In this document: piece by piece, positions 8,170 through 60,800 of the stretch
Numbering within the stretch: the stretch's first letter is position 1
How the letters are laid out: every line of letters starts with the position of its first letter
Sequence record: NZ_CP118992.1
DNA: 64,000 bases
Reading direction: 5' to 3' (one strand)
Origin: a plasmid
The notes under the pieces: model-generated
The model's input: only the letters and a program-made list of their open reading frames with translations
Databases searched by the model: none
What the model was told of the DNA's origin: nothing
Program-made: the position numbers and the translations under genes

Positions 8170-8172
8170 CTG

Positions 8173-31994: not shown

Positions 31995-32194
31995 CGCTTA
32001 TCGCTTCTTTGATGCCCTCCAGTGGAAAGATTGGGCAACACAGGTTCAACGACTGCATACAGGTAAGTAATCCAAGGCAACGGCGGCTTTAGAGGAAATT
32101 TTTCACCGGCCGGTTATGGCCGGCTGCACTCATTGGGATTTTAAACCTGAACGGCAGCCCTATGATGCAAAGGAGCCGTTCAACTCAATACGGA

Positions 32195-33022: not shown

Positions 33023-33039
33023 GTTGATGAGTCCAAAGC

Positions 33040-33160
33040 CTGTCGGAAAACAACTGTTTTGCGACAGGCACCGTTCGGCTACCAAAATCGCGTATTAACC
33101 CCGCCAAAAAATATGCGGAAAACAATGCCGCTATGGTATAGCATACGGAAATCATAGGCT
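33040..33160. promoter_or_regulatory. Putative res (resolution) site upstream of tnpR.
   Basis: Inverted-repeat subsite TGTCGGAAAACAACTGTTTTGCGACA, plus further dyads before the tnpR start; the position matches res-tnpR-tnpA organisation. Confidence 0.4.
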
Positions 33161-33175
33161 ATGGGTTTTCCACAC

Positions 33176-33769: not shown

Positions 33770-36700
33770 GGCGTAAAAGCGAGCGGCTAACCGTTCTTTC
33801 GGAGGCCGAGCAATTCGCCCTGTACGGCATGCCTGACTTCGATGATGGACAGCAACAGGAGTATCTATCACTGACCGAGGCGGAACTGGCGCTCGCCTGC
33901 AGTCGTCCTGGTTTGCATGCCCAAGCTTACTGCGCTTTGCAGATCGGCTACTTCAAAGCCAAGCATGCCTTCTTCCGCTTTACTTGGGACGACGCGCCGG
34001 ACGATTGCGCCTTCGTCCTGACTCGCTATTTCAACGATCAGGCGTTCGAGCCGCACACGATCACCAAGCACGAGCGCTACGCGCAACGAACTCTGATTGC
34101 GAAGCTATTCGGCTACCGGCTATGGTCGACGGACTCCCTGCCACAACTCGTGCAACAAGCCAATCAGATCGTTCGGCGTGACATCACGCCCGGCTTCATC
34201 GTGGCCGAGTTGATCGTCTATCTCAACGAGCACAAGATCGTCCGGCCCGGCCTCACCACGTTGCAGGAACTGATCAGCGAAGCATTGTCCGCCGAACGCC
34301 GACGCTTGGGTGTGCTACTCGATGAGGTACTGGACGGCGAGGCCAAGGCCGCGCTGGCTCAACTTCTGGTGCGCGACGACACCCTGTCGGAGCTGGCGGC
34401 TCTCAAGCAGGATGCCAAAAGCTTCGGCTGGCGACAAATGGCGCAGGAGCGGGAGAAGCGTGCCAAGCTGGAACCGTTATACCGAATTGCCAAGACGCTG
34501 TTGGCCAGGTTGGCGATCTCGCAGCAGAATCTGCACTATTACGCGAGCCTGGCCAATTTTTACACTGTCTACGACCTTCGCCGCCTCAAACCCGAGCAGA
34601 CCAACTTGTATCTGCTGTGCTACGCCTGGCAGCGTTATCGACAGTTTACCGATAATCTCGTAGATGCCTTGGGCTACCACATGAAGCAGCTCGAAGACGA
34701 GAGCAAGGCGCGGTCGAATAAGCTCTTCGTCACGGAACAGATCCGTCGGCAACAGGAAACGCCGCGAGTCGGACGTTTGCTGTTGCTCTACGTCGACGAC
34801 ACGGTGGCCGATGTCACGCCTTTCGGCGACGTGCGCCAGCGTGCGTTCAAGATCATGCCGAAGGAGGCGCTGCAAATGACCGGCCAACGCCTCAGCGTGA
34901 AGCCCGCGAGCAAGCTGGCCCTGCGCTGGCAGACCGTTGACGGTTTGGCCGAACGCATCCGGCGCCACGTGCGGCCACTCTACGGGGCGCTTGAATTCTC
35001 CGGGGTCGTGCCGGATAACCCGTGGCTTGGGGCGCTCGCCTGGGTGAAGGGTGTATTCGCGAAACAGCAGCGACTGTCACACCGTCCTCTGGCCGAATGC
35101 CCCGAGGCCACCCTGCCCAAGCGTCTGCGTCCCTATCTATTGATATTCGACGCGGACGGGAAGCCCTTGGGCTTACATGCCGACCGCTATGAGTTCTGGC
35201 TTTACCGCCAACTCAGAAAACGCTTCAAGGCTGGAGAGATCTATCTGGACGACAGTCTGCAGCACCGCTGCTTTACTGACGAGCTGGTCTCCCTTGAGGA
35301 GAAGGCCAGCGTGCTCGGCCAGATGGACATTCCCTGGCTGCGCCAGCCCATCGGAGCGCAACTTGACGCGCTGAAGGCCGAACTCCACGAACAGTGGCTG
35401 GCGTTCAACCGTGAGTTGCGCCAAGGGAAGTTGAAGCATCTCGACTACGATAGCGAGCGCAAGACGCTGACCTGGCGCCGACCCAAGGCCGACAACGATA
35501 CCGCCAAACAGAACCGCTTCTATGATCAATTGTCGTTCTGCGATGTCGGTGACGTGTTCCGCTTTGTGAACGGGCAATGCCAGTTCCTGTCGGCGCTGAC
35601 ACCGCTGCAACCGCGCTACGTCAAGCAGGTCGCCGATTCGGACAGTCTGATGGCCGGTATCATCGCCCAGGCGATGAACCACGGCAACCTCGTCATGTCG
35701 CGCACCAGTGATATTCCCTACCACGTGCTGGAGACGACCTACCAACAGTATCTGCGCCAGGCATCGCTGCAGGCGGCCAACGACCGGATCAGCAATGGCA
35801 TTGCCGACTTGCCCATCTTCCCGCACTATTCCTTCGACCTTGGTGGAGCACTCTACGGCAGCGTCGATGGTCAGAAGTTCGGCGTGGAGCGACCGACCGT
35901 CAAGGCGCGGCATTCGCGTAAGTATTTCGGTCGTGGTAAAGGGGTCGTCGCCTACACCCTGCTGTGTAACCATGTGCCGCTGCAAAGTTGGATCATCGGC
36001 GCGCATGAGTTCGAGGCGCATCACGTGTTCGACATTTGGTACCGCAACACGTCCGATATCGTGCCAACCACGATTACCGGTGACATGCACAGCGTCAACA
36101 AGGCGAACTTCGCCATCCTGTATTGGTTTGGTCTACGCTTCGAGCCGCGTTTCACCGATCTGGAAGAGCAACTGAAAGAACTCTACTGCGCCGATGATCC
36201 GGCGCTGTACGAAAAATGCCTGATTCGCCCGGTCGGCCAGATCAACCTGCCCGCCGTCATTGATGAGAAAAGCAACATTGATCAGATCGTGGCCACGCTA
36301 GGCCTCAAAGAGATGACGCAGGGCACACTGATCCGCAAGCTGTGCACCTACTCCGCATCGAACCCAACGCGGCAAGCCATATTCGAGTTCGACAAGCTGA
36401 TTCGCAGCATCTACACGTTGCGCTATTTGCGTGATCCTCAGTTGGAGCGCAACGTCCACCGCTCGCAGAATCGCATCGAGTCCTACCACCAGCTGCGTTC
36501 AGCCATCGCTCAGGTCGGCGGCAAGAAGGAATTGACCGGCCAGACCGACATCGAAGTCGAAATCAGCAACCAGTGCGCGCGGCTGATCGCCAACGCCATC
36601 ATCTACTACAACTCGGCGATCCTTTCGCGGCTGTTGACCAAGTGTGAAACCAGCGGAAACGAGAAAGCCCTCGCCCTGCTCAAGAAGATTTCGCCGGCAG

Positions 36701-36798
36701 CGTGGCGCCATATTCACCTGAACGGGCACTATACCTTTCACGGCGATGGTCAGATTATCGATCTGGATGCGATCGTGGCGGGGCTGGAATTGGGTTGA
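33766..36798 (+). CDS. tnpA: Tn3-family DDE transposase TnpA (1010 aa).
   Basis: Full-length Tn3-family transposase (N-terminal DUF4158-like region plus DDE_Tnp_Tn3), ending inside the terminal IR. An identical copy is at 54872..57904 (-). Confidence 0.9.
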
Positions 36799-38735
36799 CG
36801 GAATTTTCGGCGGTTTGGGCTTACCCCCCCATAATTCCGCTCCGACATCTGCGCGATGTTTTCGACACTCTTGGCGACCTCATTATTCGCATAGCTTTGC
36901 TCGCGAAGCGAGGTGGAAATGCCATCGATTGCTGCCAGAACATTGTCGGTGCTGCCATGAATAGTCGCCATGGAATTCCCCGTATTTCTAACGAGTTCCA
37001 TGCCCTCATTGACCATAACAGTTCCTTGCACCATGCTTTCCACCGCCTGCATCGTGCCGTTGCGTATCGCTTCGATCATGGTGGCGATGTCCTGGGTGGA
37101 GAGTTTCGTGCGTTCGGCCAGCTTTCGCACCTCGTCGGCGACCACGGCAAAGCCTCGCCCCTGCTCCCCAGCCCGTGCAGCTTCGATGGCCGCGTTGAGC
37201 GCCAGCAGATTGGTCTGGTCGGCAATCTTCTTGATGACATTGACGATATCCGCAATCTTGTGGGATTGCTCGTCAAGGGCTTGCATGAAATTCGATGACT
37301 GATTGACGTTTTCGACGATCTTGTTCATTTCAGCGACCGTTTTCTGGGCAAACAGCTCCCCTTCTTCGGCCATCTGCTTTGAATCAATTGCACTCTTGTT
37401 TACGTCCACCGTATTGTCCGATATGTGGCCGATGCTGACCGTCATCTCTTCGACCGTCGCCGCGACAGCCGCTGCGGCATCTGTCTGCTGGTTAGTTGCC
37501 TCATGCACTTGATGCGATGAGGCCGACAATTGCTTGGCGAAACCAGCCAGTTGAACCGTCGCTACGACGATTTGTTCGACCATTTCACGCAACCCGTCCT
37601 GCATCGACTTCATAGAAGCCAGAAGGCTTGTCGTATCGTTGGACTGGAGGTTGATCGTTGCCGACAGATCGCCTTTGGCTATTCTCCGGGCAACCCCGGA
37701 GGCGTACTCGGGCTCTCCACCCAACGTTTCTAGCAGGTTGCGGACAATGGCAAAGCAAATCCACAGGGTCAGGCCGACAGCTACCAGAAGCAGGCTGGCG
37801 TACGAAACGAATGCATCACGATCTGCATCCATATTCGCGTGGATTTCCTGCTGGATATCCTTTGTGTAGCTTTCCTCGACCGTCCTCAGCAGGTCAATTT
37901 TTGCAGTGATTTTGGCAAACCAGTCCTCCGGGGAATAGACCAGCTCGGCATTTGCACCCTTGTCCTTGACCATCTGTTCGATGGTGCCCACTTCCTTGAA
38001 AATCGGCTCGGCTAGCTTGGCACGCAGTAGTTTTTCCTGATCCGGCGTGGCGTACCCGATGGCCAGGCGCAAATAGGTGGCCTGATCGTTGATCAGACTC
38101 TGAAAAGTGCTGAATTGTTCAGAAGTCAGGCGCCCGGCGCTGAAGCCGCCGGCTACCAATCCCCGCTCCTGACTGTTGCGTTCCTTCAAGAACAATACTG
38201 CCTGTTTGGCATTCGACAGGCGTGACAGTTTCGATGACGGCATCTGGTTTCCGGTACGCAGCACGATTTCCAGTAACTGCGAAATCGTCTCGCTGTAGAA
38301 GCGGAAGGACTCACCGGGTTCAAGCGAGAGACGTGTTATCTGTTCGCGTTTTTTTTCGAGTTCGGCCAAAGGCGCGCTCACCGTTGCAAGAAGCTTGATA
38401 TAGCGCGGCCCGACCATGGACGCGTCGATACGCCGGATGCTTTCATTCAGACGAGAGATGGCGGTATCAGAAAGCTTGCGCTGCGCCGTGAGGTTCTCGG
38501 CAAATTTTCCGCCCTTGCTGTTGAGGAAGCCGGAGCTCATGCCGCGCTCCTTCTGTAGCTCATGCACTGTTTCACCCAACTCGACGACCAGGCTGACCAG
38601 AGATTCTGCCTGAACACGAGACTGATAATCTGAGTACTTGTTCCAGGCTCCGCTTAGGCCAAGGACCAACATGACCGTAATCGGCACGGTGGCGATCAGC
38701 AACAAACGGCTTTTCAAACTCGTCTTTTCAAACAT
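36750..38735 (-). pseudogene. NIT-domain methyl-accepting chemotaxis protein; its 3' end (C-terminus) is replaced by transposon IR sequence.
   Basis: N-terminal NIT-like sensor region (...[31 protein letters not shown]...), HAMP and MCP signalling domain. The last ~15 residues are encoded by the Tn3-family IR (36790..36830), so the native C-terminus (~30 aa) is lost. Confidence 0.7.
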
Positions 38736-38975: not shown

Positions 38976-39281
38976 TTGCCACTGTCATTTTCAGAAGACG
39001 ACTGCACCAGACAACGCGGTTTGAAGGCTGTTGTGCAGTCGTCTATTGAACGAACAGTATCAGGAGTCCGCTGCACGAATGATGACCTCAAGCCGGTTCT
39101 GGTCGCGCTGGCGACCGATCAGCCCCTGGATGTGCGATACCGCGACCACGATCTTTCCGGCGATTGGGCGGGCTACCGCGAATGCCACATCAAGCCCGAC
39201 CTGCTGCTGATCTACCGCAAGTCCGACGCCGACACCCTGCGACTGGCGCGGCTTGGCTCCCATAGCGAGCTGTTCGGCTGA
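38976..39281 (+). CDS. RelE/YafQ-family mRNA-interferase toxin with no adjacent antitoxin; start uncertain (TTG 38976 or GTG 39033).
   Basis: C-terminal RYRDHDLSGDWAGYRECHIKPDLLLIYRKSDADTLRLARLGSHSELFG matches the RelE/YafQ catalytic consensus (compare YafQ ...YKDHPLQGSWKGYRDAHVEPDWILIYKLTD..FERTGTHAALFG). The GTG at 39033 lies within the right arm of a 12-bp hairpin. Confidence 0.65.
   Translation: MPLSFSEDDCTRQRGLKAVVQSSIERTVSGVRCTNDDLKPVLVALATDQPLDVRYRDHDLSGDWAGYRECHIKPDLLLIYRKSDADTLRLARLGSHSELFG
38996..39044 (+). promoter_or_regulatory. 12-bp-stem hairpin AGACGACTGCAC-(25 nt)-GTGCAGTCGTCT in the toxin leader, overlapping the candidate start codon.
   Basis: Perfect inverted repeat, also present in the disrupted paralog at 14191..14239. 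Confidence 0.4.
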
Positions 39282-39407
39282 TGCCAGTCGCCTTGTCCGC
39301 CAAACGATCATTAGGCGGCCAAACCGGACGCCTGTCCGAAAACATCTTGCGCAACGGGATGACGGACAATAAGATAGGCGGACGGTATAACGGACAAATG
39401 GGCGGAA

Positions 39408-39983
39408 ATGGCACTCATCGGCTATGCGCGGGTATCGACGGCGGAACAGGACACCGCCTTGCAGACGGATGCGCTGCGCAATGCAGGCTGCGAACGGGTT
39501 TTCGAGGACACGGCATCCGGGGCCAAGGCAGACCGGCCCGGCTTGGCCGATGCGCTGGCTTATCTGCGCGATGGCGATGTGCTGGTCGTCTGGCGGCTGG
39601 ATCGGCTTGGCCGCTCCCTGCCGCACCTGATTGAGACGGTCGGCAAGCTGGAAGCACGGGGCGTCGGCTTCCGCTCGTTGACTGAAAACATCGACACCAC
39701 CACGCCGGGCGGACGGCTCATCTTCCATGTGTTCGGTGCGCTGGGCCAGTTCGAGCGCGACCTGATCCGCGAGCGCACCAAGGCCGGGTTGACCGCTGCC
39801 GCCGCACGCGGGCGCAAAGGCGGACGCAAGCCGGTTGTCACTGCCGACAAGTTGCAACGAGCGCGGGAGCTTGTCGCCAACGGCTTGAATGTCCGCGAGG
39901 CCGCCGCACGCCTCAAGGTAGGAAAAACCGCTCTCTACGCTGCCTTGCAGGCGGCCAGTTCTGGCAGTGCAGCCGACTCCTGA
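39408..39983 (+). CDS. Stand-alone serine recombinase (resolvase/invertase family).
   Basis: MALIGYARVSTAEQDTALQTDALRNAGCERVFED... carries the resolvase catalytic domain and C-terminal HTH. The upstream dyad TGTCCGAAAACATC...GACGGACA resembles a res subsite. Confidence 0.85.
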   Translation: MALIGYARVSTAEQDTALQTDALRNAGCERVFEDTASGAKADRPGLADALAYLRDGDVLVVWRLDRLGRSLPHLIETVGKLEARGVGFRSLTENIDTTTPGGRLIFHVFGALGQFERDLIRERTKAGLTAAAARGRKGGRKPVVTADKLQRARELVANGLNVREAAARLKVGKTALYAALQAASSGSAADS

Positions 39984-40134
39984 TATTTCGTGCAGTCGCC
40001 TTCTGAAAACGACAGGCTGTTCGAGCTTTTTACGCCAGTAAGCAAACTGGTGATAGACCAGTGCCTGGCTTTTGCAAAAGGCGTGGCCGGAGAGGCCGGA
40101 GTCAAGCCAGGCAGTGATCTGCTGCTGCCAAAAA

Positions 40135-40410
40135 TCAGCACGTTCTTGAGTGGTCATAGTGAAAATCCAGCGAAGAGGTAATGGATTTCAAGTGTGACGA
40201 GCTGATTTTGGGAAAAAAAGATGCCGATTCAAGGGCGCTTACCCAATCTCTATCAGCTTTAACGCGGGGTAAGGTGTTGGACTGCTCAATACGTCGCGCA
40301 GTTCGGGTGGAAATGGCAGACTTCGCAGCAGCGATTTCTTGAGTCATGCCTTGTTGGCGATGCTGCATATACAGCTCCTCTTGTCGGTGAGTGATATGTT
40401 GTCCAGGCAC
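40135..40410 (-). pseudogene. N-terminal fragment of an IS21-family IstA-like transposase.
   Basis: ...QEELYMQHRQQGMTQEIAAAKSAISTRTARRIE resembles the IstA N-terminal HTH (compare IS21 ...EDFYMIKQMRQQGAYIVDIATQIGCSERTVRRYL). Truncated on both sides. Confidence 0.35.
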
Positions 40411-40590
40411 CTTGAACTCCGAACAGAAAACAAGGTACCTATTGTGACACCCAACCGGCCAAGATAATTGTCGTCAACCGGTCATCCTAATTGTCGCCGA
40501 ACAGAGGGTGAGGGCGCATGTTGTCAGCTTACTTTCCACAGCAAACGGTTTTACTCCATGAACTGTAAGGTTATTAACATCATCGGACCC

Positions 40591-41851
40591 TCAGAGATCC
40601 CCTCATTTTTAGAGACTCAAATAATTCCAAGTGTGCGGGTATATAAGCGGTGTTGCTTCAGGTAGTAGATAAATTTATCCATCAACAAGACCGCATTGGT
40701 TTCTTTCATTTTAGGTAGCAACTGGTAATAGATGACCCCTTGCCGAAAGAACGAATAGGTTCGGCTCTTGCTGGTATTGACCTTGATCGTTCTCTCTAGA
40801 CCGACACTGTCTCCAGCCTTACCCAGCAGCGTCAGCAAGACGATGGCCAGGGCACTGAATAAAAACAGTCGGTCGCGCCGGACCGGATTACTGATGTGCA
40901 CATCTCCCATACCCATGCCGAATTTGTAATCTTTGATATCACGAAAACTGGTCTCGATACCCCAGCGCTGGCCGTATAGTTGCAACGCCTTGGCGGCGCT
41001 CAGGTCGGTCCGGTTACTGGCCAGAAACCACGCGTCTTTCATGCCACTCTTATGACAACAATAGACCCGTTCGACAGGCTGTCGCTGCCCAGTTAGCTCC
41101 ACCGCTTTGAGGGTTCGGGTGCGCCCGGTCGGCGTTAGCCAGTCCCGAGCTGGAACCTGCTCTACACCAGGGTAACCAACCAAAACATTTCCTTTAAATC
41201 TAATGAGATAAGCAAAGCCTAGCTCTTGCTCCAGGCGTTCGAACAGCTCCATGTAACCAAAGCCGCGGTCAGCTACTACCGTCACGAAGATACCCTCTGG
41301 CAACGTCTGCTTGAGCTTGGTGAGCAGCTCTTTCTCATGGGCATTGCGTTGCCCTTTGAGCAACGATTTCCGATGGGTTTTCCACAGCAGCGGAGTACTG
41401 CGACCGTGGTTGGTTTGCAGGCTGATAACCAAGGTACTGTGATCATCGGCATCGAATTCGGTCCAGTCCATGGAGACTACGATCTCGGTACGTTCACCGA
41501 CCACATAGGGCACCCAATCGTCAAAGAGGCTCCAGACATTGAGCTTGGTGTTAGTGAGCAGGCGATCCACCTGTTTAACCGCATGTTTACGTTCGAGACC
41601 GTTGGCCAAGGAGAGGCCACTACCGATGGCGTGGATGGCCAGTGAACCTGACTCGATAACCCCGAGGGTAGCATTGGCGAGGGAAAGAACACGCTTGGCA
41701 TGCATGTCCTGTCCAAATATATCGTCGATGTGGTTGAGGATTAGTTCGTGGTTAAACATGGGGATAGTCTGTTGGGTATTAGCTGGTCAAGGATGGCGAT
41801 CATACCTCAGAAGCCGCGCCACGCCTCGCTCATATGAGGGGATGGTTAAGC
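40591..41851 (-). mobile_element. IS4-family, IS10-like insertion sequence (copy 1, ~1.26 kb) with a 9-bp target duplication ATCGGACCC.
   Basis: Ends (T)CAGAGATCCCCTCAT... and ...ATGAGGGGATGGTTAAGC resemble IS10 termini. Direct repeat ATCGGACCC at 40582..40590 and 41852..41860. Inserted exactly at the LysR gene stop codon. Confidence 0.75.
40617..41759 (-). CDS. IS4-family (IS10-like) DDE transposase (380 aa).
   Basis: ...LQLYGQRWGIETSFRDIKDYKFGMGM... matches the IS4-family YREK signature region. Confidence 0.8.
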   Translation of the reverse strand: MFNHELILNHIDDIFGQDMHAKRVLSLANATLGVIESGSLAIHAIGSGLSLANGLERKHAVKQVDRLLTNTKLNVWSLFDDWVPYVVGERTEIVVSMDWTEFDADDHSTLVISLQTNHGRSTPLLWKTHRKSLLKGQRNAHEKELLTKLKQTLPEGIFVTVVADRGFGYMELFERLEQELGFAYLIRFKGNVLVGYPGVEQVPARDWLTPTGRTRTLKAVELTGQRQPVERVYCCHKSGMKDAWFLASNRTDLSAAKALQLYGQRWGIETSFRDIKDYKFGMGMGDVHISNPVRRDRLFLFSALAIVLLTLLGKAGDSVGLERTIKVNTSKSRTYSFFRQGVIYYQLLPKMKETNAVLLMDKFIYYLKQHRLYTRTLGII

Positions 41852-43159: not shown

Positions 43160-43450
43160 TCGGAATGTCATTCAGGGAGGTTTATCCATGCCTCCCTGAA
43201 TGAATGCCTGGCGGCTAATTACACGTGTATAACCTATCATTTATTTTCATTTCTTCGTTCTTGCTGACGAAAACAGGTTCAAAAGAGTGTCTCACCTGAG
43301 GGATCCCCACAAATTGCTCCCCCATATTATCCACACTCTATCAGATCGTCCGGTGTCCAGCACCACTGAGCCTGACTCTTATACACCTTAGAGATCCCCT
43401 CATTTTTAGAGACTCAAATAATTCCAAGTGTGCGGCTATATAAACGGTGT

Positions 43451-44979
43451 GTAACTGTTCACCCAGATGGCATTGACAGGAAAAAGTGAGACGATCATCC
43501 CTTGATCCACTGTTGCCCCTTGCCTGATCCCGCCAGCTTGGCACCATCACGTCATGAGCAAACCCATTACGCCACCACCCGGCCTGCCGCTGACCCTCGA
43601 GCAAGCCAACGAGCTGATTTACAAGCTGATGGCGCGCATCGCCGAGCTTGAAGACCGCCTCAACCAAAACAGCAATAACTCCTCCAAGCCCCCCTCCACT
43701 GATGGCTCGGGGACCCCGCCTGCGCGCAAGCGCCCCGCTTCCGGCAAGGCTCGTGGTGCCCAGCCTGGCCACAAGGGGCAGCGGCGTGAACGTCATCCTG
43801 AGGACGACCGACTGACGGCAATACCACACTATCCTGCCCGGCAGTGCGCCTGCTGTGGTGAGCAGGTGGTGTCCCATGACAAGCCCTACCGGGTTCATCA
43901 GGTGTTTGACCTGCCCGAGGTCAGCTATGTGGTGACAGAGCATCAGCTGTATCGGGGCACCTGCCGTGGGTGCGTCACCACCAGTGAAGCAGCCCTGCCC
44001 GATACGGTGAGCCACAGCCAGATGGGGGCTAATCTGCTGAGCTATATCGCTTTGCAGAGTGGTCAGTTCCACCAGAGCATCAGCAAGATACAGCAGCAGC
44101 TCAAGCAGCACTTCGGTTTGAGCTTTAGCCGAGGCGCCATCAGTGAAGCGCAAGGCCGGGTCAGCGCCATGCTCACCCCGACCCACCAAGCCATCAAACA
44201 GCAAGTGCAGTCTGCCGCCATCATCCATGCCGATGAAACCCGGCACCAGCGGGGCGGTGAGCGACGCTGGATGTGGCTGGCCCTGAGCAAGGTCGCGGTC
44301 TGCTTCATGACGGCGTTTGGCCGCGGTCAGGAGGCAGCGAAGCGGTTGCTGGGCAGTGAGCTTGATGGGGTGCTGGTGACCGACCAGTATGCGGGATACC
44401 GCTTCATCGACAGCGCCCAGCGCCAACTGTGCTGGGCGCATGTGCTGCGCAACGTGGCGGCGATTGCCGAGAGTAGCGACGCCGTCAACCAGCCTATCGG
44501 AGCCCGGCTGGTACTGCTGGCTGACACGGTGTTCAGAACCCGGCATGGCTATGAACAAGGCTGCTTAAGCCGGGAGCAGTACCAGCGAAGGTTGCAGCGA
44601 TGTCGGCAAAGCTGGCGAAGGCAGCTGGAGCGGGGCAGTGTACTGTGTTCCAAGCGCTACCGTGGGCGCTGCCAGTTACTGCTCAAGGACGATGAGATGC
44701 TATGGCGTTTTATGGAAAACGACGAGATAGCGCTGACCAACAATGAAGCGGAGCGGGCGCTGCGTGGCTATGTGCTGTGGCGCAAGGGAAGCTATGGCGT
44801 CTGGTCGCATCGAGGCGAGCAGTTCAGGCAGCGTATCCTATCGTTGGTGGAGACGGCCAAGCGATTGGGCCGCTGCCCGCAGGAGTGGCTGAGGGCAGTT
44901 GTCAGGTCCTGCATCGAGAAAACCGACTACCCGTTCCCGGAGGAGTTGGTGCTGTCAACACCGTCCCGGTGAACGGTTA
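43451..44979 (+). mobile_element. IS66-family single-ORF insertion sequence, copy 1 of 3 (1529 bp).
   Basis: Terminal IRs GTAACTGTTCACC / GGTGAACGGTTAC. 8-bp target duplication AACGGTGT (43443..43450 and 44980..44987). Confidence 0.8.
43554..44972 (+). CDS. IS66-family transposase (TnpC-like, 472 aa).
   Basis: N-terminal leucine-zipper/IS66 motif (LIYKLMARIAELEDRLNQNSNNSSKPPSTDG...KRPASGKARGAQPGHKG), a CxxC...CxxC zinc finger and a DDE domain. Identical copies at 45253..46671 and 46952..48370. Confidence 0.85.
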   Translation: MSKPITPPPGLPLTLEQANELIYKLMARIAELEDRLNQNSNNSSKPPSTDGSGTPPARKRPASGKARGAQPGHKGQRRERHPEDDRLTAIPHYPARQCACCGEQVVSHDKPYRVHQVFDLPEVSYVVTEHQLYRGTCRGCVTTSEAALPDTVSHSQMGANLLSYIALQSGQFHQSISKIQQQLKQHFGLSFSRGAISEAQGRVSAMLTPTHQAIKQQVQSAAIIHADETRHQRGGERRWMWLALSKVAVCFMTAFGRGQEAAKRLLGSELDGVLVTDQYAGYRFIDSAQRQLCWAHVLRNVAAIAESSDAVNQPIGARLVLLADTVFRTRHGYEQGCLSREQYQRRLQRCRQSWRRQLERGSVLCSKRYRGRCQLLLKDDEMLWRFMENDEIALTNNEAERALRGYVLWRKGSYGVWSHRGEQFRQRILSLVETAKRLGRCPQEWLRAVVRSCIEKTDYPFPEELVLSTPSR

Positions 44980-45149
44980 CAACGGTGTTGCTTCAGGTAG
45001 TAGATAAATTTATCCAGCAATAGGACTGCATTGGCCTCTTTCATTTTTGGCAGCAACTGGTAATAGATGACCCCTTGCCGAAAGAACGAATAGGTTCGGC
45101 TCTTGCTGGTATTGACCTTGATCGTTCTCTCCAGGCCAACGCTATCGCC

Positions 45150-46678
45150 GTAACTGTTCACCCAGATGGCATTGACAGGAAAAAGTGAGACGATCATCCC
45201 TTGATCCACTGTTGCCCCTTGCCTGATCCCGCCAGCTTGGCACCATCACGTCATGAGCAAACCCATTACGCCACCACCCGGCCTGCCGCTGACCCTCGAG
45301 CAAGCCAACGAGCTGATTTACAAGCTGATGGCGCGCATCGCCGAGCTTGAAGACCGCCTCAACCAAAACAGCAATAACTCCTCCAAGCCCCCCTCCACTG
45401 ATGGCTCGGGGACCCCGCCTGCGCGCAAGCGCCCCGCTTCCGGCAAGGCTCGTGGTGCCCAGCCTGGCCACAAGGGGCAGCGGCGTGAACGTCATCCTGA
45501 GGACGACCGACTGACGGCAATACCACACTATCCTGCCCGGCAGTGCGCCTGCTGTGGTGAGCAGGTGGTGTCCCATGACAAGCCCTACCGGGTTCATCAG
45601 GTGTTTGACCTGCCCGAGGTCAGCTATGTGGTGACAGAGCATCAGCTGTATCGGGGCACCTGCCGTGGGTGCGTCACCACCAGTGAAGCAGCCCTGCCCG
45701 ATACGGTGAGCCACAGCCAGATGGGGGCTAATCTGCTGAGCTATATCGCTTTGCAGAGTGGTCAGTTCCACCAGAGCATCAGCAAGATACAGCAGCAGCT
45801 CAAGCAGCACTTCGGTTTGAGCTTTAGCCGAGGCGCCATCAGTGAAGCGCAAGGCCGGGTCAGCGCCATGCTCACCCCGACCCACCAAGCCATCAAACAG
45901 CAAGTGCAGTCTGCCGCCATCATCCATGCCGATGAAACCCGGCACCAGCGGGGCGGTGAGCGACGCTGGATGTGGCTGGCCCTGAGCAAGGTCGCGGTCT
46001 GCTTCATGACGGCGTTTGGCCGCGGTCAGGAGGCAGCGAAGCGGTTGCTGGGCAGTGAGCTTGATGGGGTGCTGGTGACCGACCAGTATGCGGGATACCG
46101 CTTCATCGACAGCGCCCAGCGCCAACTGTGCTGGGCGCATGTGCTGCGCAACGTGGCGGCGATTGCCGAGAGTAGCGACGCCGTCAACCAGCCTATCGGA
46201 GCCCGGCTGGTACTGCTGGCTGACACGGTGTTCAGAACCCGGCATGGCTATGAACAAGGCTGCTTAAGCCGGGAGCAGTACCAGCGAAGGTTGCAGCGAT
46301 GTCGGCAAAGCTGGCGAAGGCAGCTGGAGCGGGGCAGTGTACTGTGTTCCAAGCGCTACCGTGGGCGCTGCCAGTTACTGCTCAAGGACGATGAGATGCT
46401 ATGGCGTTTTATGGAAAACGACGAGATAGCGCTGACCAACAATGAAGCGGAGCGGGCGCTGCGTGGCTATGTGCTGTGGCGCAAGGGAAGCTATGGCGTC
46501 TGGTCGCATCGAGGCGAGCAGTTCAGGCAGCGTATCCTATCGTTGGTGGAGACGGCCAAGCGATTGGGCCGCTGCCCGCAGGAGTGGCTGAGGGCAGTTG
46601 TCAGGTCCTGCATCGAGAAAACCGACTACCCGTTCCCGGAGGAGTTGGTGCTGTCAACACCGTCCCGGTGAACGGTTA
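45150..46678 (+). mobile_element. IS66-family IS, copy 2 of 3 (transposase 45253..46671).
   Basis: Identical to copy 1. Flanked on the left by CTATCGCC and on the right by AACGGTGT, i.e. hybrid flanks. Confidence 0.8.
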
Positions 46679-46848
46679 CAACGGTGTTGCTTCAGGTAGT
46701 AGATAAATTTATCCAGCAATAGGACTGCATTGGCCTCTTTCATTTTTGGCAGCAACTGGTAATAGATGACCCCTTGCCGAAAGAACGAATAGGTTCGGCT
46801 CTTGCTGGTATTGACCTTGATCGTTCTCTCCAGGCCAACGCTATCGCC

Positions 46849-48377
46849 GTAACTGTTCACCCAGATGGCATTGACAGGAAAAAGTGAGACGATCATCCCT
46901 TGATCCACTGTTGCCCCTTGCCTGATCCCGCCAGCTTGGCACCATCACGTCATGAGCAAACCCATTACGCCACCACCCGGCCTGCCGCTGACCCTCGAGC
47001 AAGCCAACGAGCTGATTTACAAGCTGATGGCGCGCATCGCCGAGCTTGAAGACCGCCTCAACCAAAACAGCAATAACTCCTCCAAGCCCCCCTCCACTGA
47101 TGGCTCGGGGACCCCGCCTGCGCGCAAGCGCCCCGCTTCCGGCAAGGCTCGTGGTGCCCAGCCTGGCCACAAGGGGCAGCGGCGTGAACGTCATCCTGAG
47201 GACGACCGACTGACGGCAATACCACACTATCCTGCCCGGCAGTGCGCCTGCTGTGGTGAGCAGGTGGTGTCCCATGACAAGCCCTACCGGGTTCATCAGG
47301 TGTTTGACCTGCCCGAGGTCAGCTATGTGGTGACAGAGCATCAGCTGTATCGGGGCACCTGCCGTGGGTGCGTCACCACCAGTGAAGCAGCCCTGCCCGA
47401 TACGGTGAGCCACAGCCAGATGGGGGCTAATCTGCTGAGCTATATCGCTTTGCAGAGTGGTCAGTTCCACCAGAGCATCAGCAAGATACAGCAGCAGCTC
47501 AAGCAGCACTTCGGTTTGAGCTTTAGCCGAGGCGCCATCAGTGAAGCGCAAGGCCGGGTCAGCGCCATGCTCACCCCGACCCACCAAGCCATCAAACAGC
47601 AAGTGCAGTCTGCCGCCATCATCCATGCCGATGAAACCCGGCACCAGCGGGGCGGTGAGCGACGCTGGATGTGGCTGGCCCTGAGCAAGGTCGCGGTCTG
47701 CTTCATGACGGCGTTTGGCCGCGGTCAGGAGGCAGCGAAGCGGTTGCTGGGCAGTGAGCTTGATGGGGTGCTGGTGACCGACCAGTATGCGGGATACCGC
47801 TTCATCGACAGCGCCCAGCGCCAACTGTGCTGGGCGCATGTGCTGCGCAACGTGGCGGCGATTGCCGAGAGTAGCGACGCCGTCAACCAGCCTATCGGAG
47901 CCCGGCTGGTACTGCTGGCTGACACGGTGTTCAGAACCCGGCATGGCTATGAACAAGGCTGCTTAAGCCGGGAGCAGTACCAGCGAAGGTTGCAGCGATG
48001 TCGGCAAAGCTGGCGAAGGCAGCTGGAGCGGGGCAGTGTACTGTGTTCCAAGCGCTACCGTGGGCGCTGCCAGTTACTGCTCAAGGACGATGAGATGCTA
48101 TGGCGTTTTATGGAAAACGACGAGATAGCGCTGACCAACAATGAAGCGGAGCGGGCGCTGCGTGGCTATGTGCTGTGGCGCAAGGGAAGCTATGGCGTCT
48201 GGTCGCATCGAGGCGAGCAGTTCAGGCAGCGTATCCTATCGTTGGTGGAGACGGCCAAGCGATTGGGCCGCTGCCCGCAGGAGTGGCTGAGGGCAGTTGT
48301 CAGGTCCTGCATCGAGAAAACCGACTACCCGTTCCCGGAGGAGTTGGTGCTGTCAACACCGTCCCGGTGAACGGTTA
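46849..48377 (+). mobile_element. IS66-family IS, copy 3 of 3 (transposase 46952..48370).
   Basis: Identical to copies 1 and 2. Right flank CTATCGCC (48378..48385) matches the left flank of copy 2 (45142..45149). Confidence 0.8.
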
Positions 48378-49080
48378 CCTATCGCCAGCCTTACCCAGCA
48401 GCGTTAGCAGGACAATGGCGAGGGCGCTGAACAAAAACAGTCGGTCGCGCCGGACCGGATTACTGATGTGCACTTCTCCCATACCCATGCCAAATTTGTA
48501 ATCTTTGATATCACGAAAACTGGTCTCGATACCCCAGCGCTGGCCGTACAGTTGCAACGCCTTGGCGGCGCTCAGGTCGGTCCGGTTACTGGCCAGAAAC
48601 CAAGCGTCCTTCATGCCACTTTTGCGACAACAATAGACCCGTTCGACAGGCTGTCTCTGTCCGGTGAGCTCCACCTGTTTGAGGGTTCGGGTGCGTCCGG
48701 TCGGCGTTAGCCAGTCACGAGCTGGAACCTGCTCTCCACCAGGGTAACCAACCAAAATATTTCCTTTAAATCTAATGACATAAGCAAAGCCTAGCTCTTG
48801 TTCCAGGCGCTCGAACAGCTCCATGTAACCAAAGCCTCGGTCAGCGACTACTGTCACGAAGATACCCTCTGGTAGCGTCTGCTTGAGTTTGGTGAGCAGC
48901 TCTTTCTCATGGGCATTACGTTGCCCTTTGAGCAACGATTTTCGATGGGTTTTCCACAGCAGCGGGGTACTGCGTCCATGGTTGGTTTGCAGGCTGATAA
49001 CCAAGGTGCTGTGATCATCGGCGTCGAATTCGGTCCAGTCCATGGAGACTACGATCTCGGTACGTTCACCGACCACATAG

Positions 49081-50124
<1,044 letters not shown>

Positions 50125-54171: not shown

Positions 54172-54840
54172 ATGCAAATTCTGAAAGCCTACAAATTCCG
54201 ACTCGAACCGACCGAGCAACAAGCGCAACGCCTGCGCCAGTTGGGCGGCTGTGCTCGTTATGTCTGGAATCACGGGCTTGTAGAGACAAAGCGCATTCTG
54301 GATTCCGGCGACAAGCTGCCATCATATTTCGATTTATCTCGGATGCTCACCCGTTGGAAGAAAGATCCAGAAATGGCCTTTCTGGCCGAGGCATACACCG
54401 ACAACCTCCAGCAGAAACTCAAGGATTTGCACGGCGCGTGGATGCGTTGTTTTGATAAAAAATTCGCCGCCAAGGCTCCCGTTTTCAAGAAGAAAAGCGA
54501 CAACCGAGACTCAATCCGGTTCGTCAACTTCGACAAGTATTGCCGCCTTGAAAAAGGGCGGGTGAAGCTGCCAAGCGGTCTGGCGTGGGTCAAGTTCCGC
54601 CAGTCACGCCCAGTCGAAGGGAAGATTAAAAACGCCACCGTCAGCCAATCAGCAGGACACTGGTATATCTCATTTCAGGTCGAGCAGGAGCTTCCAGAGC
54701 CAGCTCACCCGTCCGGCTCAATGGTCGGGCTGGATGCAGGGATTGCCAAGCTCGCAACCCTGTCAGATGGTACGGTGTTTGAGCCTGTCAACAGCTTCAA
54801 AACCAATCAGACCAAGCTGGCCAGGCTACAGCGCCAGTTG
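54172..54840 (+). pseudogene. tnpB: IS605-type TnpB (OrfB) N-terminal ~220 aa, truncated by the Tn3-family transposon copy B.
   Basis: MQILKAYKFRLEPTEQQAQRLRQLGGCARYVWNHGL... is the canonical TnpB N-terminus. The reading frame runs into IR GGGGGGTAAGCCC at 54841. Confidence 0.75.
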
Positions 54841-57800
54841 GGGGGGTAAGCCCAAACCGCCGAAAATTCCGTCAACCCAATTCCAGCCCCGCCACGATCG
54901 CATCCAGATCGATAATCTGACCATCGCCGTGAAAGGTATAGTGCCCGTTCAGGTGAATATGGCGCCACGCTGCCGGCGAAATCTTCTTGAGCAGGGCGAG
55001 GGCTTTCTCGTTTCCGCTGGTTTCACACTTGGTCAACAGCCGCGAAAGGATCGCCGAGTTGTAGTAGATGATGGCGTTGGCGATCAGCCGCGCGCACTGG
55101 TTGCTGATTTCGACTTCGATGTCGGTCTGGCCGGTCAATTCCTTCTTGCCGCCGACCTGAGCGATGGCTGAACGCAGCTGGTGGTAGGACTCGATGCGAT
55201 TCTGCGAGCGGTGGACGTTGCGCTCCAACTGAGGATCACGCAAATAGCGCAACGTGTAGATGCTGCGAATCAGCTTGTCGAACTCGAATATGGCTTGCCG
55301 CGTTGGGTTCGATGCGGAGTAGGTGCACAGCTTGCGGATCAGTGTGCCCTGCGTCATCTCTTTGAGGCCTAGCGTGGCCACGATCTGATCAATGTTGCTT
55401 TTCTCATCAATGACGGCGGGCAGGTTGATCTGGCCGACCGGGCGAATCAGGCATTTTTCGTACAGCGCCGGATCATCGGCGCAGTAGAGTTCTTTCAGTT
55501 GCTCTTCCAGATCGGTGAAACGCGGCTCGAAGCGTAGACCAAACCAATACAGGATGGCGAAGTTCGCCTTGTTGACGCTGTGCATGTCACCGGTAATCGT
55601 GGTTGGCACGATATCGGACGTGTTGCGGTACCAAATGTCGAACACGTGATGCGCCTCGAACTCATGCGCGCCGATGATCCAACTTTGCAGCGGCACATGG
55701 TTACACAGCAGGGTGTAGGCGACGACCCCTTTACCACGACCGAAATACTTACGCGAATGCCGCGCCTTGACGGTCGGTCGCTCCACGCCGAACTTCTGAC
55801 CATCGACGCTGCCGTAGAGTGCTCCACCAAGGTCGAAGGAATAGTGCGGGAAGATGGGCAAGTCGGCAATGCCATTGCTGATCCGGTCGTTGGCCGCCTG
55901 CAGCGATGCCTGGCGCAGATACTGTTGGTAGGTCGTCTCCAGCACGTGGTAGGGAATATCACTGGTGCGCGACATGACGAGGTTGCCGTGGTTCATCGCC
56001 TGGGCGATGATACCGGCCATCAGACTGTCCGAATCGGCGACCTGCTTGACGTAGCGCGGTTGCAGCGGTGTCAGCGCCGACAGGAACTGGCATTGCCCGT
56101 TCACAAAGCGGAACACGTCACCGACATCGCAGAACGACAATTGATCATAGAAGCGGTTCTGTTTGGCGGTATCGTTGTCGGCCTTGGGTCGGCGCCAGGT
56201 CAGCGTCTTGCGCTCGCTATCGTAGTCGAGATGCTTCAACTTCCCTTGGCGCAACTCACGGTTGAACGCCAGCCACTGTTCGTGGAGTTCGGCCTTCAGC
56301 GCGTCAAGTTGCGCTCCGATGGGCTGGCGCAGCCAGGGAATGTCCATCTGGCCGAGCACGCTGGCCTTCTCCTCAAGGGAGACCAGCTCGTCAGTAAAGC
56401 AGCGGTGCTGCAGACTGTCGTCCAGATAGATCTCTCCAGCCTTGAAGCGTTTTCTGAGTTGGCGGTAAAGCCAGAACTCATAGCGGTCGGCATGTAAGCC
56501 CAAGGGCTTCCCGTCCGCGTCGAATATCAATAGATAGGGACGCAGACGCTTGGGCAGGGTGGCCTCGGGGCATTCGGCCAGAGGACGGTGTGACAGTCGC
56601 TGCTGTTTCGCGAATACACCCTTCACCCAGGCGAGCGCCCCAAGCCACGGGTTATCCGGCACGACCCCGGAGAATTCAAGCGCCCCGTAGAGTGGCCGCA
56701 CGTGGCGCCGGATGCGTTCGGCCAAACCGTCAACGGTCTGCCAGCGCAGGGCCAGCTTGCTCGCGGGCTTCACGCTGAGGCGTTGGCCGGTCATTTGCAG
56801 CGCCTCCTTCGGCATGATCTTGAACGCACGCTGGCGCACGTCGCCGAAAGGCGTGACATCGGCCACCGTGTCGTCGACGTAGAGCAACAGCAAACGTCCG
56901 ACTCGCGGCGTTTCCTGTTGCCGACGGATCTGTTCCGTGACGAAGAGCTTATTCGACCGCGCCTTGCTCTCGTCTTCGAGCTGCTTCATGTGGTAGCCCA
57001 AGGCATCTACGAGATTATCGGTAAACTGTCGATAACGCTGCCAGGCGTAGCACAGCAGATACAAGTTGGTCTGCTCGGGTTTGAGGCGGCGAAGGTCGTA
57101 GACAGTGTAAAAATTGGCCAGGCTCGCGTAATAGTGCAGATTCTGCTGCGAGATCGCCAACCTGGCCAACAGCGTCTTGGCAATTCGGTATAACGGTTCC
57201 AGCTTGGCACGCTTCTCCCGCTCCTGCGCCATTTGTCGCCAGCCGAAGCTTTTGGCATCCTGCTTGAGAGCCGCCAGCTCCGACAGGGTGTCGTCGCGCA
57301 CCAGAAGTTGAGCCAGCGCGGCCTTGGCCTCGCCGTCCAGTACCTCATCGAGTAGCACACCCAAGCGTCGGCGTTCGGCGGACAATGCTTCGCTGATCAG
57401 TTCCTGCAACGTGGTGAGGCCGGGCCGGACGATCTTGTGCTCGTTGAGATAGACGATCAACTCGGCCACGATGAAGCCGGGCGTGATGTCACGCCGAACG
57501 ATCTGATTGGCTTGTTGCACGAGTTGTGGCAGGGAGTCCGTCGACCATAGCCGGTAGCCGAATAGCTTCGCAATCAGAGTTCGTTGCGCGTAGCGCTCGT
57601 GCTTGGTGATCGTGTGCGGCTCGAACGCCTGATCGTTGAAATAGCGAGTCAGGACGAAGGCGCAATCGTCCGGCGCGTCGTCCCAAGTAAAGCGGAAGAA
57701 GGCATGCTTGGCTTTGAAGTAGCCGATCTGCAAAGCGCAGTAAGCTTGGGCATGCAAACCAGGACGACTGCAGGCGAGCGCCAGTTCCGCCTCGGTCAGT

Positions 57801-60800
57801 GATAGATACTCCTGTTGCTGTCCATCATCGAAGTCAGGCATGCCGTACAGGGCGAATTGCTCGGCCTCCGAAAGAACGGTTAGCCGCTCGCTTTTACGCC
57901 TCATCGTTGCGGCATCTTCTCAGCACTTGGCCAGCCAACTCGGGCAAGGGTTTCGATCAGCGTGGTGCGCTTGACGCCAAAGTTGCGGCACACAGCCGCC
58001 TTGGACATGCCGCCATTCAGCGCGGCGACGATGGTGTCCAGTTTCTCGCCGATGATCGCCGGTGGCCGGCCACCGAGTCGGCCCCGTCGCTTGGCGGCCG
58101 CCAGTCCGGCTATTACCCTTTCTCGGGTCAGGGCGCGTTCGTACTGCGCAAGCGCACCGAACACCTGAAACAATAGCTCGCCCGATGGCGTGGTGGTATC
58201 CATGCCTTCGGTGAGCGAACGAAAAGCGACCTGCCGCTCCCGCAACGTGTCAACGATGGTGAGCAGATGCGACAGCGAGCGGCCAAGCCTGTCCAGCTTC
58301 CAGACGACAAGAACATCGTCAGGTTGAACAAACGCCAGCGCCTTGGCCAACCCCGGACGATCATCCTTGGCGCCGGACGCGCGATCCTCGAATAGGTGGC
58401 GCGCATCAACGCCTGCCGCCAACAGGGCATCGCGTTGTAGATCCGTGGTTTGTCGATCAGAGTCGGAAGAGACGCGCATGTAGCCGACAAGCATGTGTGG
58501 AAAACCCATAGCCTATGATTTCCGTATGCTATACCATAGCGGCATTGTTTTCCGCATATTTTTTGGCGGGGTTAATACGCGATTTTGGTAGCCGAACGGT
58601 GCCTGTCGCAAAACAGTTGTTTTCCGACAGGCTTTGGACTCATCAACATGAAAAATCGCAGCATTACGGTGCACGGCGCCGAAGTGACCATCACGACTCG
58701 TCACGAACAGGATTACATTTCACTGACTGACATGGTGAAACGATTCGGGGATGAAAGCGTTCTCTACAGTTGGTTGCGGAACCGCAACACCATAGAGTTC
58801 CTCGGTATATGGGAGCAAATTTACAACCCAGCCTTTAAACCTCTCGAATTCGAGAGGTTTAAGAGTCAGGCCGGTCTGAACAGTTTCTCACTGTCGCCGA
58901 AAAAATGGATCGATACCACAGACGCCATCGGTCTCTATGCCAAAGCTGGACGTGGCGGCGGCACCTATGCCCACAAGGATATCGCTTTCGAATTCGGTTC
59001 TTGGCTCAGCCCCGAGTTCAAGCTGTACCTGATCAAGGAATTTCAGCGCCTCAAGGATGAAGAAGCGCGAGCCATTTCGCTGGAATGGAATTTCCAGCGC
59101 ACGCTGTCCAAGGTCAACTACCGTATTCACACGGACGCCATCAAGGAACGCCTGATTCCGCCGCAACTAACCAAAACGCAAACCGCCACCGTCTATGCCA
59201 GCGAAGCCGATCTACTCAACGTCGCACTGTTTGGGATGACGGCCACTCAATGGCGGCAAGCCAATCCCGACCAAACCGGCAACATGCGTGATATCGCGAC
59301 CCTGGAGCAATTGGTCGTGCTATCCAATATGGAGAGCATCAACGCGGTCCTGATCCATCAAGGGCTTTCAGCGCCGGAGCGATTGACGCAATTAAACGCC
59401 ATCGCGATCACGCAGATGCGCTCCTTGGTTGGCATCGGCGTCATCAAGCAACTGGGTAAGCTGCCAGAGCGGTGATCCGTATTGAGTTGAACGGCTCCTT
59501 TGCATCATAGGGCTGCCGTTCAGGTTTAAAATCCCAATGAGTGCAGCCGGCCATAACCGGCCGGTGAAAAATTTCCTCTAAAGCCGCCGTTGCCTTGGAT
59601 TACTTACCTGTATGCAGTCGTTGAACCTGTGTTGCCCAATCTTTCCACTGGAGGGCATCAAAGAAGCGATAAGCGTCAGATCCGGAACTTATGCACCGAC
59701 TCGCTCATTGAAACGGACAGCTTTTCGAGGTGTTCGGCCGACTTGGCGACCGAACGGACCACGGCGCTGGTTTCCTCGGTCATCTGGGCAATGCCTTCGA
59801 CATTGCGGGCGATGTCGTGATTGGCCGTGTTCTGCTCGCGCAGCGACGCGGATATCTCCTCGGCCGCGCTCATCATCTGGCCCACGCCGTCCTGAATCTT
59901 GCCCATCGTTTCGCCGGCGCGCCGGATCATCACCACTCCGGCTCGTGTACGGTCACTGCCGCCGGCCATTTCGTTGACCACCCTGACGGTGCCCTCACGC
60001 ACGGAATCGACCGTTGCCTTGATTTCGCTGGTCGCCTTGGTCGTGCGTTCGGCGAGTTTGCGCACTTCGTCAGCGACGACCGCGAAGCCGCGCCCCTGCT
60101 CGCCCGCTCGCGCCGCCTCAATGGCCGCGTTCAAGGCGAGAAGATTGGTCTGGTCGGCAATTTCACGGATCACATCGACGATTTTTGAAATCTGCTCCGA
60201 GCGATCGCCGAGCACCTTCACCGACTCGGCCGTGCTCATCACCGCTGCAGAAATTCCGTCCATTTCGGCAATCGCCTCATCCACCGCGGCTTCGCCGACA
60301 TCGGAAAGGCTCCGCGCATCGACCGCGCTCTGATGTGCCCCGCTGGCGCTTTCGGTGATATGGGTTATTGACACCGCCATTTCCTCGATCGACGCGGCCA
60401 TCGACGCGGATTTGTCGCTTTGGGTATGGGCCGCCGTCGCGACCTGATTGGCGGCGAGCGAGATCTCGTGCGCCGAAGCGGTCAGCGTGTCGGCTGACTC
60501 GCCGATGCCGCGTATGATCGTGCGCAGACTCTCCTGCATGGCCCGGATCGCCGCCAGCAGGCTGTGCTGATCACCGGGGCGGATTCTGATTTCGTGGGTG
60601 AGGTCGCCACCGGCGATGCGTTGCGTAATCCTTGCAGCCTCCACGGGTTCGCCGCCGAGTGTCCGGATCAGCGACCGGTAGAGCATGAAACCCGATAGCA
60701 GCATCAGCACACCGATGGCGACGCCGAGCCCGGTACTTGTGCCCTGCGCCCGCTGGATTCCGGTTTCCGCAATGCTTGCGGATTCCGCCATGTGCTCGCG

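Follow-up and report, generated by a model that had tools for sequence, protein, structure and literature searches.

Three tandem copies of ISAs21 in a broken ISAs18-like element of a plasmid, with flanks that suggest two insertions and an unequal exchange

Layout of the array

We analyzed a 64,000-nt stretch of the plasmid record NZ_CP118992.1 (the window), in which three copies of an IS66-type insertion sequence, assigned below to ISAs21, lie head-to-tail inside the remains of another element. Comparison of the window with itself gave a perfect self-identity with a period of 1699 bp (43451 to 46679 versus 45150 to 48378). The copies are mutually 100% identical and 1530 bp long each; the two 169-bp spacers between them are identical as well. 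The features of the locus are listed here, with A standing for the 8-mer AACGGTGT and B for the 8-mer CTATCGCC.

40590..41850, minus strand: intact second ISAs18 with a 380-aa transposase, flanked by the 9-bp target duplication CATCGGACC; served as reference in reconstructing the empty sites
43387..43450, minus strand: left-hand part of the host ISAs18-like element (copy B), ending with 8-mer A; aligned to intact ISAs18
43443..43450, no strand: target-site duplication A, left copy; single occurrence in the empty-site contigs L016, L018 and L010
43451..44980, plus strand: ISAs21 copy 1, 1530 bp, A on both sides; 100% identical to ISAs21-annotated copies on Aeromonas and Citrobacter plasmids
43554..44972, plus strand (further copies at 45253-46671 and 46952-48370): sole ISAs21 gene, encoding an IS66-family (TnpC-type) transposase of 472 aa by NCBIfam and Pfam
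44981..45149, minus strand: spacer 1, a 169-bp segment of the coding sequence for the ISAs18 transposase, with A first (44981-44988) and B last (45142-45149)
45150..46679, plus strand: ISAs21 copy 2, recombinant by flank comparison, preceded by B and followed by A
46680..46848, minus strand: spacer 2, the same as spacer 1 (identity over 169 bp confirmed)
46849..48378, plus strand: ISAs21 copy 3, B on both sides by flank comparison
48379..48386, no strand: target-site duplication B, right copy; single occurrence in the empty-site contigs L016 and L011
48379..49422, minus strand: rest of the host ISAs18-like element, from alignment to intact ISAs18; transposase truncated

The 8-mer A is present at 43443-50, 44981-88 and 46680-87 and the 8-mer B at 45142-49, 46841-48 and 48379-86, giving the flank order A-IS-A...B-IS-A...B-IS-B. 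Directly oriented identical IS copies stand at both ends of the array and between its units, which are themselves identical. Three identical 1.5-kb copies cannot be a product of chance. Tandem Repeats Finder, with a longest period of 500, did not report the 1699-bp array.

The initial annotation had proposed three identical IS66-type copies with this period, and both the self-identity and the ORF domains bear it out; the flanks that it described (A on both sides of copy 1, a B/A hybrid in the middle, B after copy 3) match exactly. Its lengths required small corrections. The element has 1530 rather than 1529 bp, the terminal C of ...GGTTAC being assigned to it because copies in other records match over the full 1-1530. 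The same spacer indeed separates the copies, with a length of 169 rather than 170 bp, and the right-hand 8-mer, with which the array ends, reaches 48386 rather than 48385.

The repeated element and its host

By sequence, the repeated element is ISAs21, a catalogued single-ORF member of the IS66 family. It is 100.0% identical to seven plasmid copies annotated as ISAs21 (protein WP_004576012.1; Aeromonas and Citrobacter plasmids), which carry the RefSeq label 'IS66-like element ISAs21 family transposase'; the identification uses these RefSeq-annotated copies rather than the ISfinder entry. ISAs21 was named in 2018 from Aeromonas salmonicida subsp. pectinolytica 34mel as a relative of ISKpn15 (PMC5756416), and the identity of ∼78.5% at the nucleotide level that we observed between the two agrees with that report. 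The transposase scored 357.9 bits against the NCBIfam model transpos_IS66 (cut-off 180), with an alignment from position 1 to 385 of the 387 in the model, and contains the Pfam domains DDE_Tnp_IS66 (153.2 bits), zf-IS66 (28.2 bits, cut-off 27.3) and DUF6444. The N-terminal DUF6444, in place of LZ_Tnp_IS66, is common to other 472-473-aa single-ORF copies, an observation that does not amount to a phylogeny. The ORF takes up 1419 of the 1530 bp, with 103 bp of the element before it and 8 bp after it, and the antisense ORFs of ISAs21 matched no Pfam family.

The DDE-type transposase, ends beginning with GTAA and 8-bp target duplications place ISAs21 in the IS66 family. Its terminal inverted repeats, GTAACTGTTCACC and GTAACCGTTCACC, match at 12 of 13 bases. 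ISAs21 carries neither tnpA nor tnpB, as is characteristic of the ISBst12 group, the known single-ORF members of the family (PMC12898284). The suggestion that a single-ORF IS66 element is noteworthy in itself was thus not upheld, given that this group is established, that ISAs21 has had a name since 2018 and that it is extremely common, with its transposase found in thousands of assemblies.

Alignments indicate that the array is hosted by a broken ISAs18-like element of the IS4 family adjoining ydhR. Its left part is identical to the empty-site contigs L016, L018 and L010 and matches records labelled 'IS4-like element ISAs18 family transposase', and the spacers show a 92-94% match to ISAs18 in plasmid records. 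The host transposase is cut short: what is left is a 318-aa ORF (48375-49331) with its stop codon inside the ISAs21 end. The earlier description of the host as 'IS10-like' was imprecise, the host being ISAs18 of the IS4 family; the ends of ISAs18 do resemble those of IS10.

Empty sites and the origin of the array

To reconstruct the locus before insertion, we removed from the host sequence the three ISAs21 copies and one copy of each 8-mer. The product aligned without gaps to the intact ISAs18 of the window over 1257 nt and, over 2709 nt (99.67%), to L016, a metagenome contig that extends across the two empty sites. Contig L011 likewise has both sites empty, with the same junction between ISAs18 and an IS5 fragment on the right as in the window. 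The empty allele of the ydhR-ISAs18 locus is present in five public contigs (L016, L011, L018, L012 and L010). Since these contigs carry the uninterrupted ISAs18 variant beside ydhR, the 8-mers are genuine target-site duplications at sites 161 bp apart. Duplications of 8 bp also flank 17 other simple ISAs21 insertions in other records (one further insertion has 9 bp), and therefore A and B are normal insertion footprints.

The array is probably a small IS-mediated tandem duplication on an Aeromonas-type plasmid, formed by two ISAs21 insertions and one subsequent unequal exchange. In the first step, documented by the duplications, the ISAs18-like element beside ydhR was struck twice by ISAs21 in the same orientation, at AACGGTGT and, 161 bp off, at CTATCGCC, each insertion acquiring its own 8-bp target duplication. 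In the second, read from the flanks, the 1530-bp direct repeats on sister or co-resident plasmid copies would misalign and undergo one homologous exchange; equivalently, IS and spacer could leave as a 1699-bp circle and reintegrate by homology. Both routes would yield a third ISAs21 copy and a second 169-bp spacer, the new middle copy lying between B (left) and A (right). Unequal crossing over between IS copies, described as the standard route (PMC9602291), has a published signature, a central IS whose two flanks derive one from each outer element (PMC3916326). Copy 2 has exactly this composition, one target-duplication half coming from each outer insertion. The gapless reconstruction, the empty-site contigs and the hybrid middle flanks support the core of the original proposal, unequal homologous recombination after two independent insertions.

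The same flanks refute three independent insertions, an account with practically no chance of being right. ISAs21 is abundant and active in Aeromonas, as that account would need, but no matching duplication flanks the middle copy (B left, A right), and insertion cannot explain why the 153-bp interior of the spacer is also present twice.

A more serious alternative, though an unlikely one, is that the assembler over-counted: the real molecule may have two copies (A-IS-A-169 bp-B-IS-B), or the culture may be a mixture of molecules with one, two, three or more copies and a consensus of three. The initial annotation named a collapsed repeat as the possible artefact; the relevant one would be an over-expanded repeat. 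The four junction sequences are exactly alike in two-copy and three-copy molecules, so that only spanning reads distinguish them, and the 100% identity of all units is equally expected from an artefact. Artefact-like duplications do occur in long-read plasmids of the same group; in NZ_CP124843.1 the first 16,095 bp are repeated at the end with 100% identity. Against over-counting, the contig studied here resolves a perfect 7654-bp inverted repeat pair, which required reads longer than the 4.9-kb array and hence long enough to span it, and extended regions match well-known transposon sequences at 100%, which indicates a polished, accurate assembly.

For the account by two insertions and one exchange, it is a weakness that the copy number of three is that of the assembly. 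It also counts against this account that, with random insertion, two hits in the same orientation at a distance of 161 bp would be improbable. The roughly 20 sites compared show no apparent target-site consensus for ISAs21; one must therefore assume local hopping, or neutral retention within a dead IS. Moreover, 1.5-kb direct repeats should recombine and make the array unstable. The array involves no selected cargo, and we infer that it is a neutral, unstable copy-number state which may expand or collapse again by the same recombination.

Amplification driven by the transposase, either by IS26-style formation of a translocatable unit with targeted reinsertion or by run-on (rolling-circle) replication during copy-out, appears very improbable. 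Such routes are discussed for IS26 (PMC9602291), and all three array copies retain an intact transposase gene. ISAs21 is evidently active: pKAM339_1 carries a composite ISAs21-glgC-ISAs21 with an outer 8-bp duplication, and nested ISAs21 insertions occur. Yet nothing in the sequence requires the transposase, no new 8-bp duplication is present, and all junctions are those of the two parental insertions. No further ISAs21 arrays were seen in 15 ISAs21-bearing PLSDB records (among the matches listed) or at 10 sampled chromosomal places, which also speaks against this route. The IS66 family is not known to use a targeted conservative reaction. An IS26-type mechanism by family membership was rejected, as the transposase is of the IS66 type and scored 20.8 bits against the IS6 model (cut-off 125). 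There is, similarly, only a slim chance that the array reflects a property of the ISAs21 transposase, such as strong same-orientation local hopping, or an IS-plus-spacer circle that the transposase reinserts or copies by run-on replication, as opposed to passive homologous recombination. Either property would, if true, provide a first mechanistic handle on the movement of single-ORF (ISBst12-group) IS66 elements.

Comparison with other arrays and related alleles

In nucleotide sequence (100%), 472-aa protein, ends and 8-bp duplications, the array copies are the same as ISAs21 of other records; the only difference from the records examined is the presence of three tandem copies with 169-bp spacers. 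Head-to-tail copies are also a feature of the (IS)2 tandem dimers of IS30-, IS21- and IS911-type elements. The reactive junctions of such dimers are formed by abutted IS ends with only a few bp between them. In the array, 169 bp lie between the ends and both outer copies show an ordinary target duplication; a classical (IS)2 reactive dimer was rejected because the spacer is too long.

A close likeness is to the ISPsy5-mediated 165-kb tandem duplication in Pseudomonas syringae pv. tomato DC3000 (PMC3916326), which likewise involved two same-orientation IS copies and unequal crossing over and left a central IS with one 8-bp flank from each outer element, as in array copy 2. The duplicated unit, however, comprised 165 kb of genes and was accompanied by a growth phenotype, whereas the array duplicates 169 bp of a defunct transposase gene; the array unit is almost wholly IS, with no evident selectable content. 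The IS26 translocatable-unit arrays that amplify aphA1 or blaTEM (PMC9602291) are also head-to-tail repeats of an IS and an adjacent segment, bounded by directly oriented IS copies. IS26, in contrast, belongs to the IS6 family and uses a dedicated targeted-conservative reaction, and its arrays are selected by antibiotics; the present element is of the IS66 type, its unit has no resistance gene, and homology suffices.

Two further results count against the account by two insertions and one exchange. The presumed two-copy parent or a single-insertion allele was not found in GTDB representative genomes, JGI metagenomes or protein-indexed assemblies. An exact-sequence scan of the GTDB representative genomes for the whole IS-end/spacer/IS-end junction gave no match; scans likewise did not find the B-site junction in either genomes or metagenomes, or the A-site junction in the metagenomes. 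Neither of the two junction-specific ORFs, the truncated ISAs18 transposase (318 aa) and the spacer ORF (84 aa), was on record by exact-protein look-up. Moreover, a synthetic query joining the right and left ends of ISAs21 revealed no other closely spaced head-to-tail pair among the PLSDB matches listed (best query coverage ≤52%); for one 4.9-Mb record the number of matching pieces, at least 40, is a lower bound.

The rearrangement is of an ordinary, well-documented type. The reciprocal target-site duplications make the order of events (two insertions, then one unequal exchange) readable from the sequence alone. The copy number at the locus is likely to vary between cells and between assemblies, and in practice the array is a caution for assembly quality control and plasmid comparison in IS-dense Aeromonas resistance regions. 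Beyond annotation it matters little; a new biological question would arise only if the array depended on the transposase.

A two-piece match in NZ_CP124843.1, considered as a possible second tandem, proved to be ISAs21 nested in ISAs21 with its own 8-bp duplication. Hybrid or reciprocal flanks resulting from recombination between ISAs21 copies do occur elsewhere, as with GATGATTC in the same record, which favors the exchange proposed for the array.

Layout and identity of the ISAs21 array

A position-by-position comparison of the window at an offset of 1699 gives a single unbroken identical run (43451-46679 versus 45150-48378), and self-BLAST of the window agrees. The three identical tandem copies described in the initial annotation stand, while its division into a 1529-bp IS and a 170-bp spacer was one base off: the final C of ...GGTTAC is assigned to ISAs21 because other records hold copies that match over the whole of 1-1530. 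The flanking 8-mers, designated A and B, are arranged as that annotation had stated.

ISAs21 copies, spacers, flanking 8-mers and the intact ISAs18 in the window
43451-44980, ISAs21 copy 1, A on both sides, 100% identical to copies 2 and 3
44981-45149, spacer 1, 169 bp, identical to spacer 2
45150-46679, ISAs21 copy 2, B on the left and A on the right, 100% identical to copies 1 and 3
46680-46848, spacer 2, 169 bp, identical to spacer 1
46849-48378, ISAs21 copy 3, B on both sides, 100% identical to copies 1 and 2
43443-50, 44981-88 and 46680-87, 8-mer A, AACGGTGT
45142-49, 46841-48 and 48379-86, 8-mer B, CTATCGCC
40590-41850, intact ISAs18, 380-aa transposase, 9-bp duplication CATCGGACC

Each ISAs21 copy, with termini GTAACTGTTCACC and GTAACCGTTCACC, has one 472-aa ORF matching NCBIfam transpos_IS66 (357.9 bits; cut-off 180) and Pfam DDE_Tnp_IS66, zf-IS66 and DUF6444. 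The sequence outside the ORF amounts to 103 bp upstream and 8 bp downstream, so that tnpA/tnpB would not fit, and the antisense ORFs gave zero matches to protein families. Copies annotated in RefSeq as ‘IS66-like element ISAs21 family transposase’ in plasmids of Aeromonas caviae, A. media, A. salmonicida and Citrobacter freundii share 100% identity with the element, which is ∼78.5% identical to ISKpn15. The genome paper on A. salmonicida subsp. pectinolytica 34mel, which named ISAs21, describes it as a relative of ISKpn15 (PMC5756416). Single-ORF IS66 members make up the recognised ISBst12 group (PMC12898284), and the exact 472-aa protein is present in 9,618 blocks of a public assembly collection; the element and its architecture, the latter flagged initially as notable, are therefore already known and common.

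Two insertions and the origin of the third copy

Once all three ISAs21 copies are deleted, along with one A and one B, the reconstruction has 1199/1257 identities to intact ISAs18 and zero gaps across both sites. Stronger evidence that A and B are insertion footprints comes from public contigs with the same LysR-ydhR-ISAs18 locus, found through exact matches to the protein encoded by the adjacent ydhR. Over 2709 nt, the JGI metagenome contig L016 aligns gap-free to the reconstruction at 99.67% identity, with zero mismatches near site A or B. Both sites are also empty in contig L011 (GCA_018610365.1), which has the ISAs18/IS5-fragment right-hand junction in common with the window, and an empty A site is present at 100% identity in contigs L018, L012 and L010. 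Each 8-mer is single in the empty-site contigs, and the other simple ISAs21 insertions examined have duplications of 8 bp (17 cases) or 9 bp (one case). The empty alleles and the 8-bp habit demonstrate the two independent insertions proposed initially; they share one orientation and lie 161 bp apart.

Two hits so close together and in one orientation would be unlikely if targeting were random, and no target consensus was seen among ∼20 ISAs21 sites. Local hopping of a copy-and-paste element may explain this, or insertions may be retained preferentially where they land in an IS that is already dead; the latter fits plasmid record NZ_CP124843.1 (L002/L003), where one ISAs21 sits within another, flanked by the 8-bp duplication CCTGCTGT.

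If copy 2 of one molecule misaligned with copy 1 of a second and homologous exchange followed, the products would be A-IS-A-sp-B-IS-A-sp-B-IS-B and the reciprocal deletion form A-IS-B. The observed array is exactly the predicted longer product, and its reciprocal-flank signature is the one by which unequal crossing over of ISPsy5 copies was established in Pseudomonas syringae DC3000 (PMC3916326); unequal homologous exchange is described as the standard route to IS-bounded amplification (PMC9602291). Recombination between ISAs21 copies can also be seen in NZ_CP124843.1, where it has left exchanged flanks (GATGATTC on two different copies). The B/A middle copy and the duplicated spacer fit this main interpretation of the initial annotation, which is sound, and it is, in our judgement, probable that the triplication is real and that homologous exchange produced it. 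It is a new instance of an ordinary, known type of rearrangement. Excision of a 1699-bp circle with reintegration by homology, or template switching in replication, would give the same product, and these routes and exchange are inseparable by sequence. Since the repeated unit carries only a dead transposase gene fragment, we infer that the copy number is neutral and that the amplification was not selected.

A third transposition was rejected: the 153-bp spacer interior is duplicated and the middle copy is without a matching duplication of its own. Any transposase-dependent route to the array is highly improbable.

Real triplication or assembly over-count

The assembler may instead have over-counted a real two-copy structure, which we consider rather unlikely. 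Two-copy and three-copy molecules have all four junction types in common, and discrimination therefore falls to spanning reads. A perfect 7654-bp inverted repeat (29178-36831 versus 54839-62492 by self-BLAST) is resolved in this contig, for which reads must exceed the 4.9-kb array in length, and long stretches of the window match well-known transposon sequences at 100% identity, pointing to an accurate consensus. An over-count would, however, agree with the failure to find two-copy or single-insertion alleles among GTDB representative genomes, JGI metagenomes and protein-indexed assemblies, or other closely spaced ISAs21 pairs among the PLSDB matches listed and 10 sampled chromosomal places. 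Artefact-like duplications do occur among such plasmids: the first 16,095 bp of the ‘complete’ circular record NZ_CP124843.1 (1-16095) are repeated at its end (74323-90417) with 100% identity, probably an untrimmed circularisation overlap.

The 7654-bp repeats contain part of an IS1182-family element, a methyl-accepting chemotaxis protein gene and Tn3-family tnpR/tnpA; they bracket an array-containing segment of 18 kb, which could invert by recombination. An IS200/IS605-type TnpB (RNA-guided endonuclease family) is represented at 54172-54849 by a 225-aa N-terminal fragment, which ends ∼10 bp beyond the start of the repeat at 54839.

Host element and other ISAs21 arrangements

The spacer and both outer flanks derive from an IS4-family element whose minus-strand transposase is truncated to a 318-aa ORF (48375-49331). 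The label ‘IS10-like’ given initially suits its ends (CTCAGAGATCCCCTCAT) but not its name; the element is of ISAs18 type, 92-94% identical to plasmid features annotated ‘IS4-like element ISAs18 family transposase’. The intact copy and the host copy (43387-49422 without ISAs21) are mosaic, with ∼93-95% identity over the C-terminal two-thirds of the transposase and one mismatch in the nearly identical last ∼350 bp, a pattern that suggests gene conversion between the two. The host copy ends in CTGAG rather than TTAAG, and no 9-bp duplication surrounds it. A 15-bp string, CTGACTCTTATACAC (43372-43386), separates the ydhR module from the ISAs18 end and consists of the same bases that open the Tn5/IS50 outside end. 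It is also present in L016, L018 and L010, and in three further contigs (L013, L014 and L017) the start of another IS4-family element falls exactly at this boundary. Directly left of the intact ISAs18, 39060-40243 holds what is left of an IS66-family element of the classical three-gene kind (an ISAeme5-type TnpA match over residues 1-48 of a 365-aa ORF, and 231 bp matching an annotated IS66 TnpB feature), so both IS66 architectures lie <4 kb apart.

In pKAM339_1 (NZ_AP024941.1, L004), 4001-8812 is a composite transposon carrying the glucose-1-phosphate adenylyltransferase gene (glgC) between two directly oriented ISAs21 copies, with the 8-mer CTGAGCAG outside both; glgC adjoins ISAs21 in NZ_CP124843.1 too. 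The A. media MC64 chromosome (CP047962.1, L028) has, at 753-7427, two direct ISAs21 transposase genes ∼5 kb apart, flanked by two pieces of a glycoside-hydrolase gene. The 8-mers do not match at the one copy with flanks read, and the pair may be another composite transposon or a recombination product.
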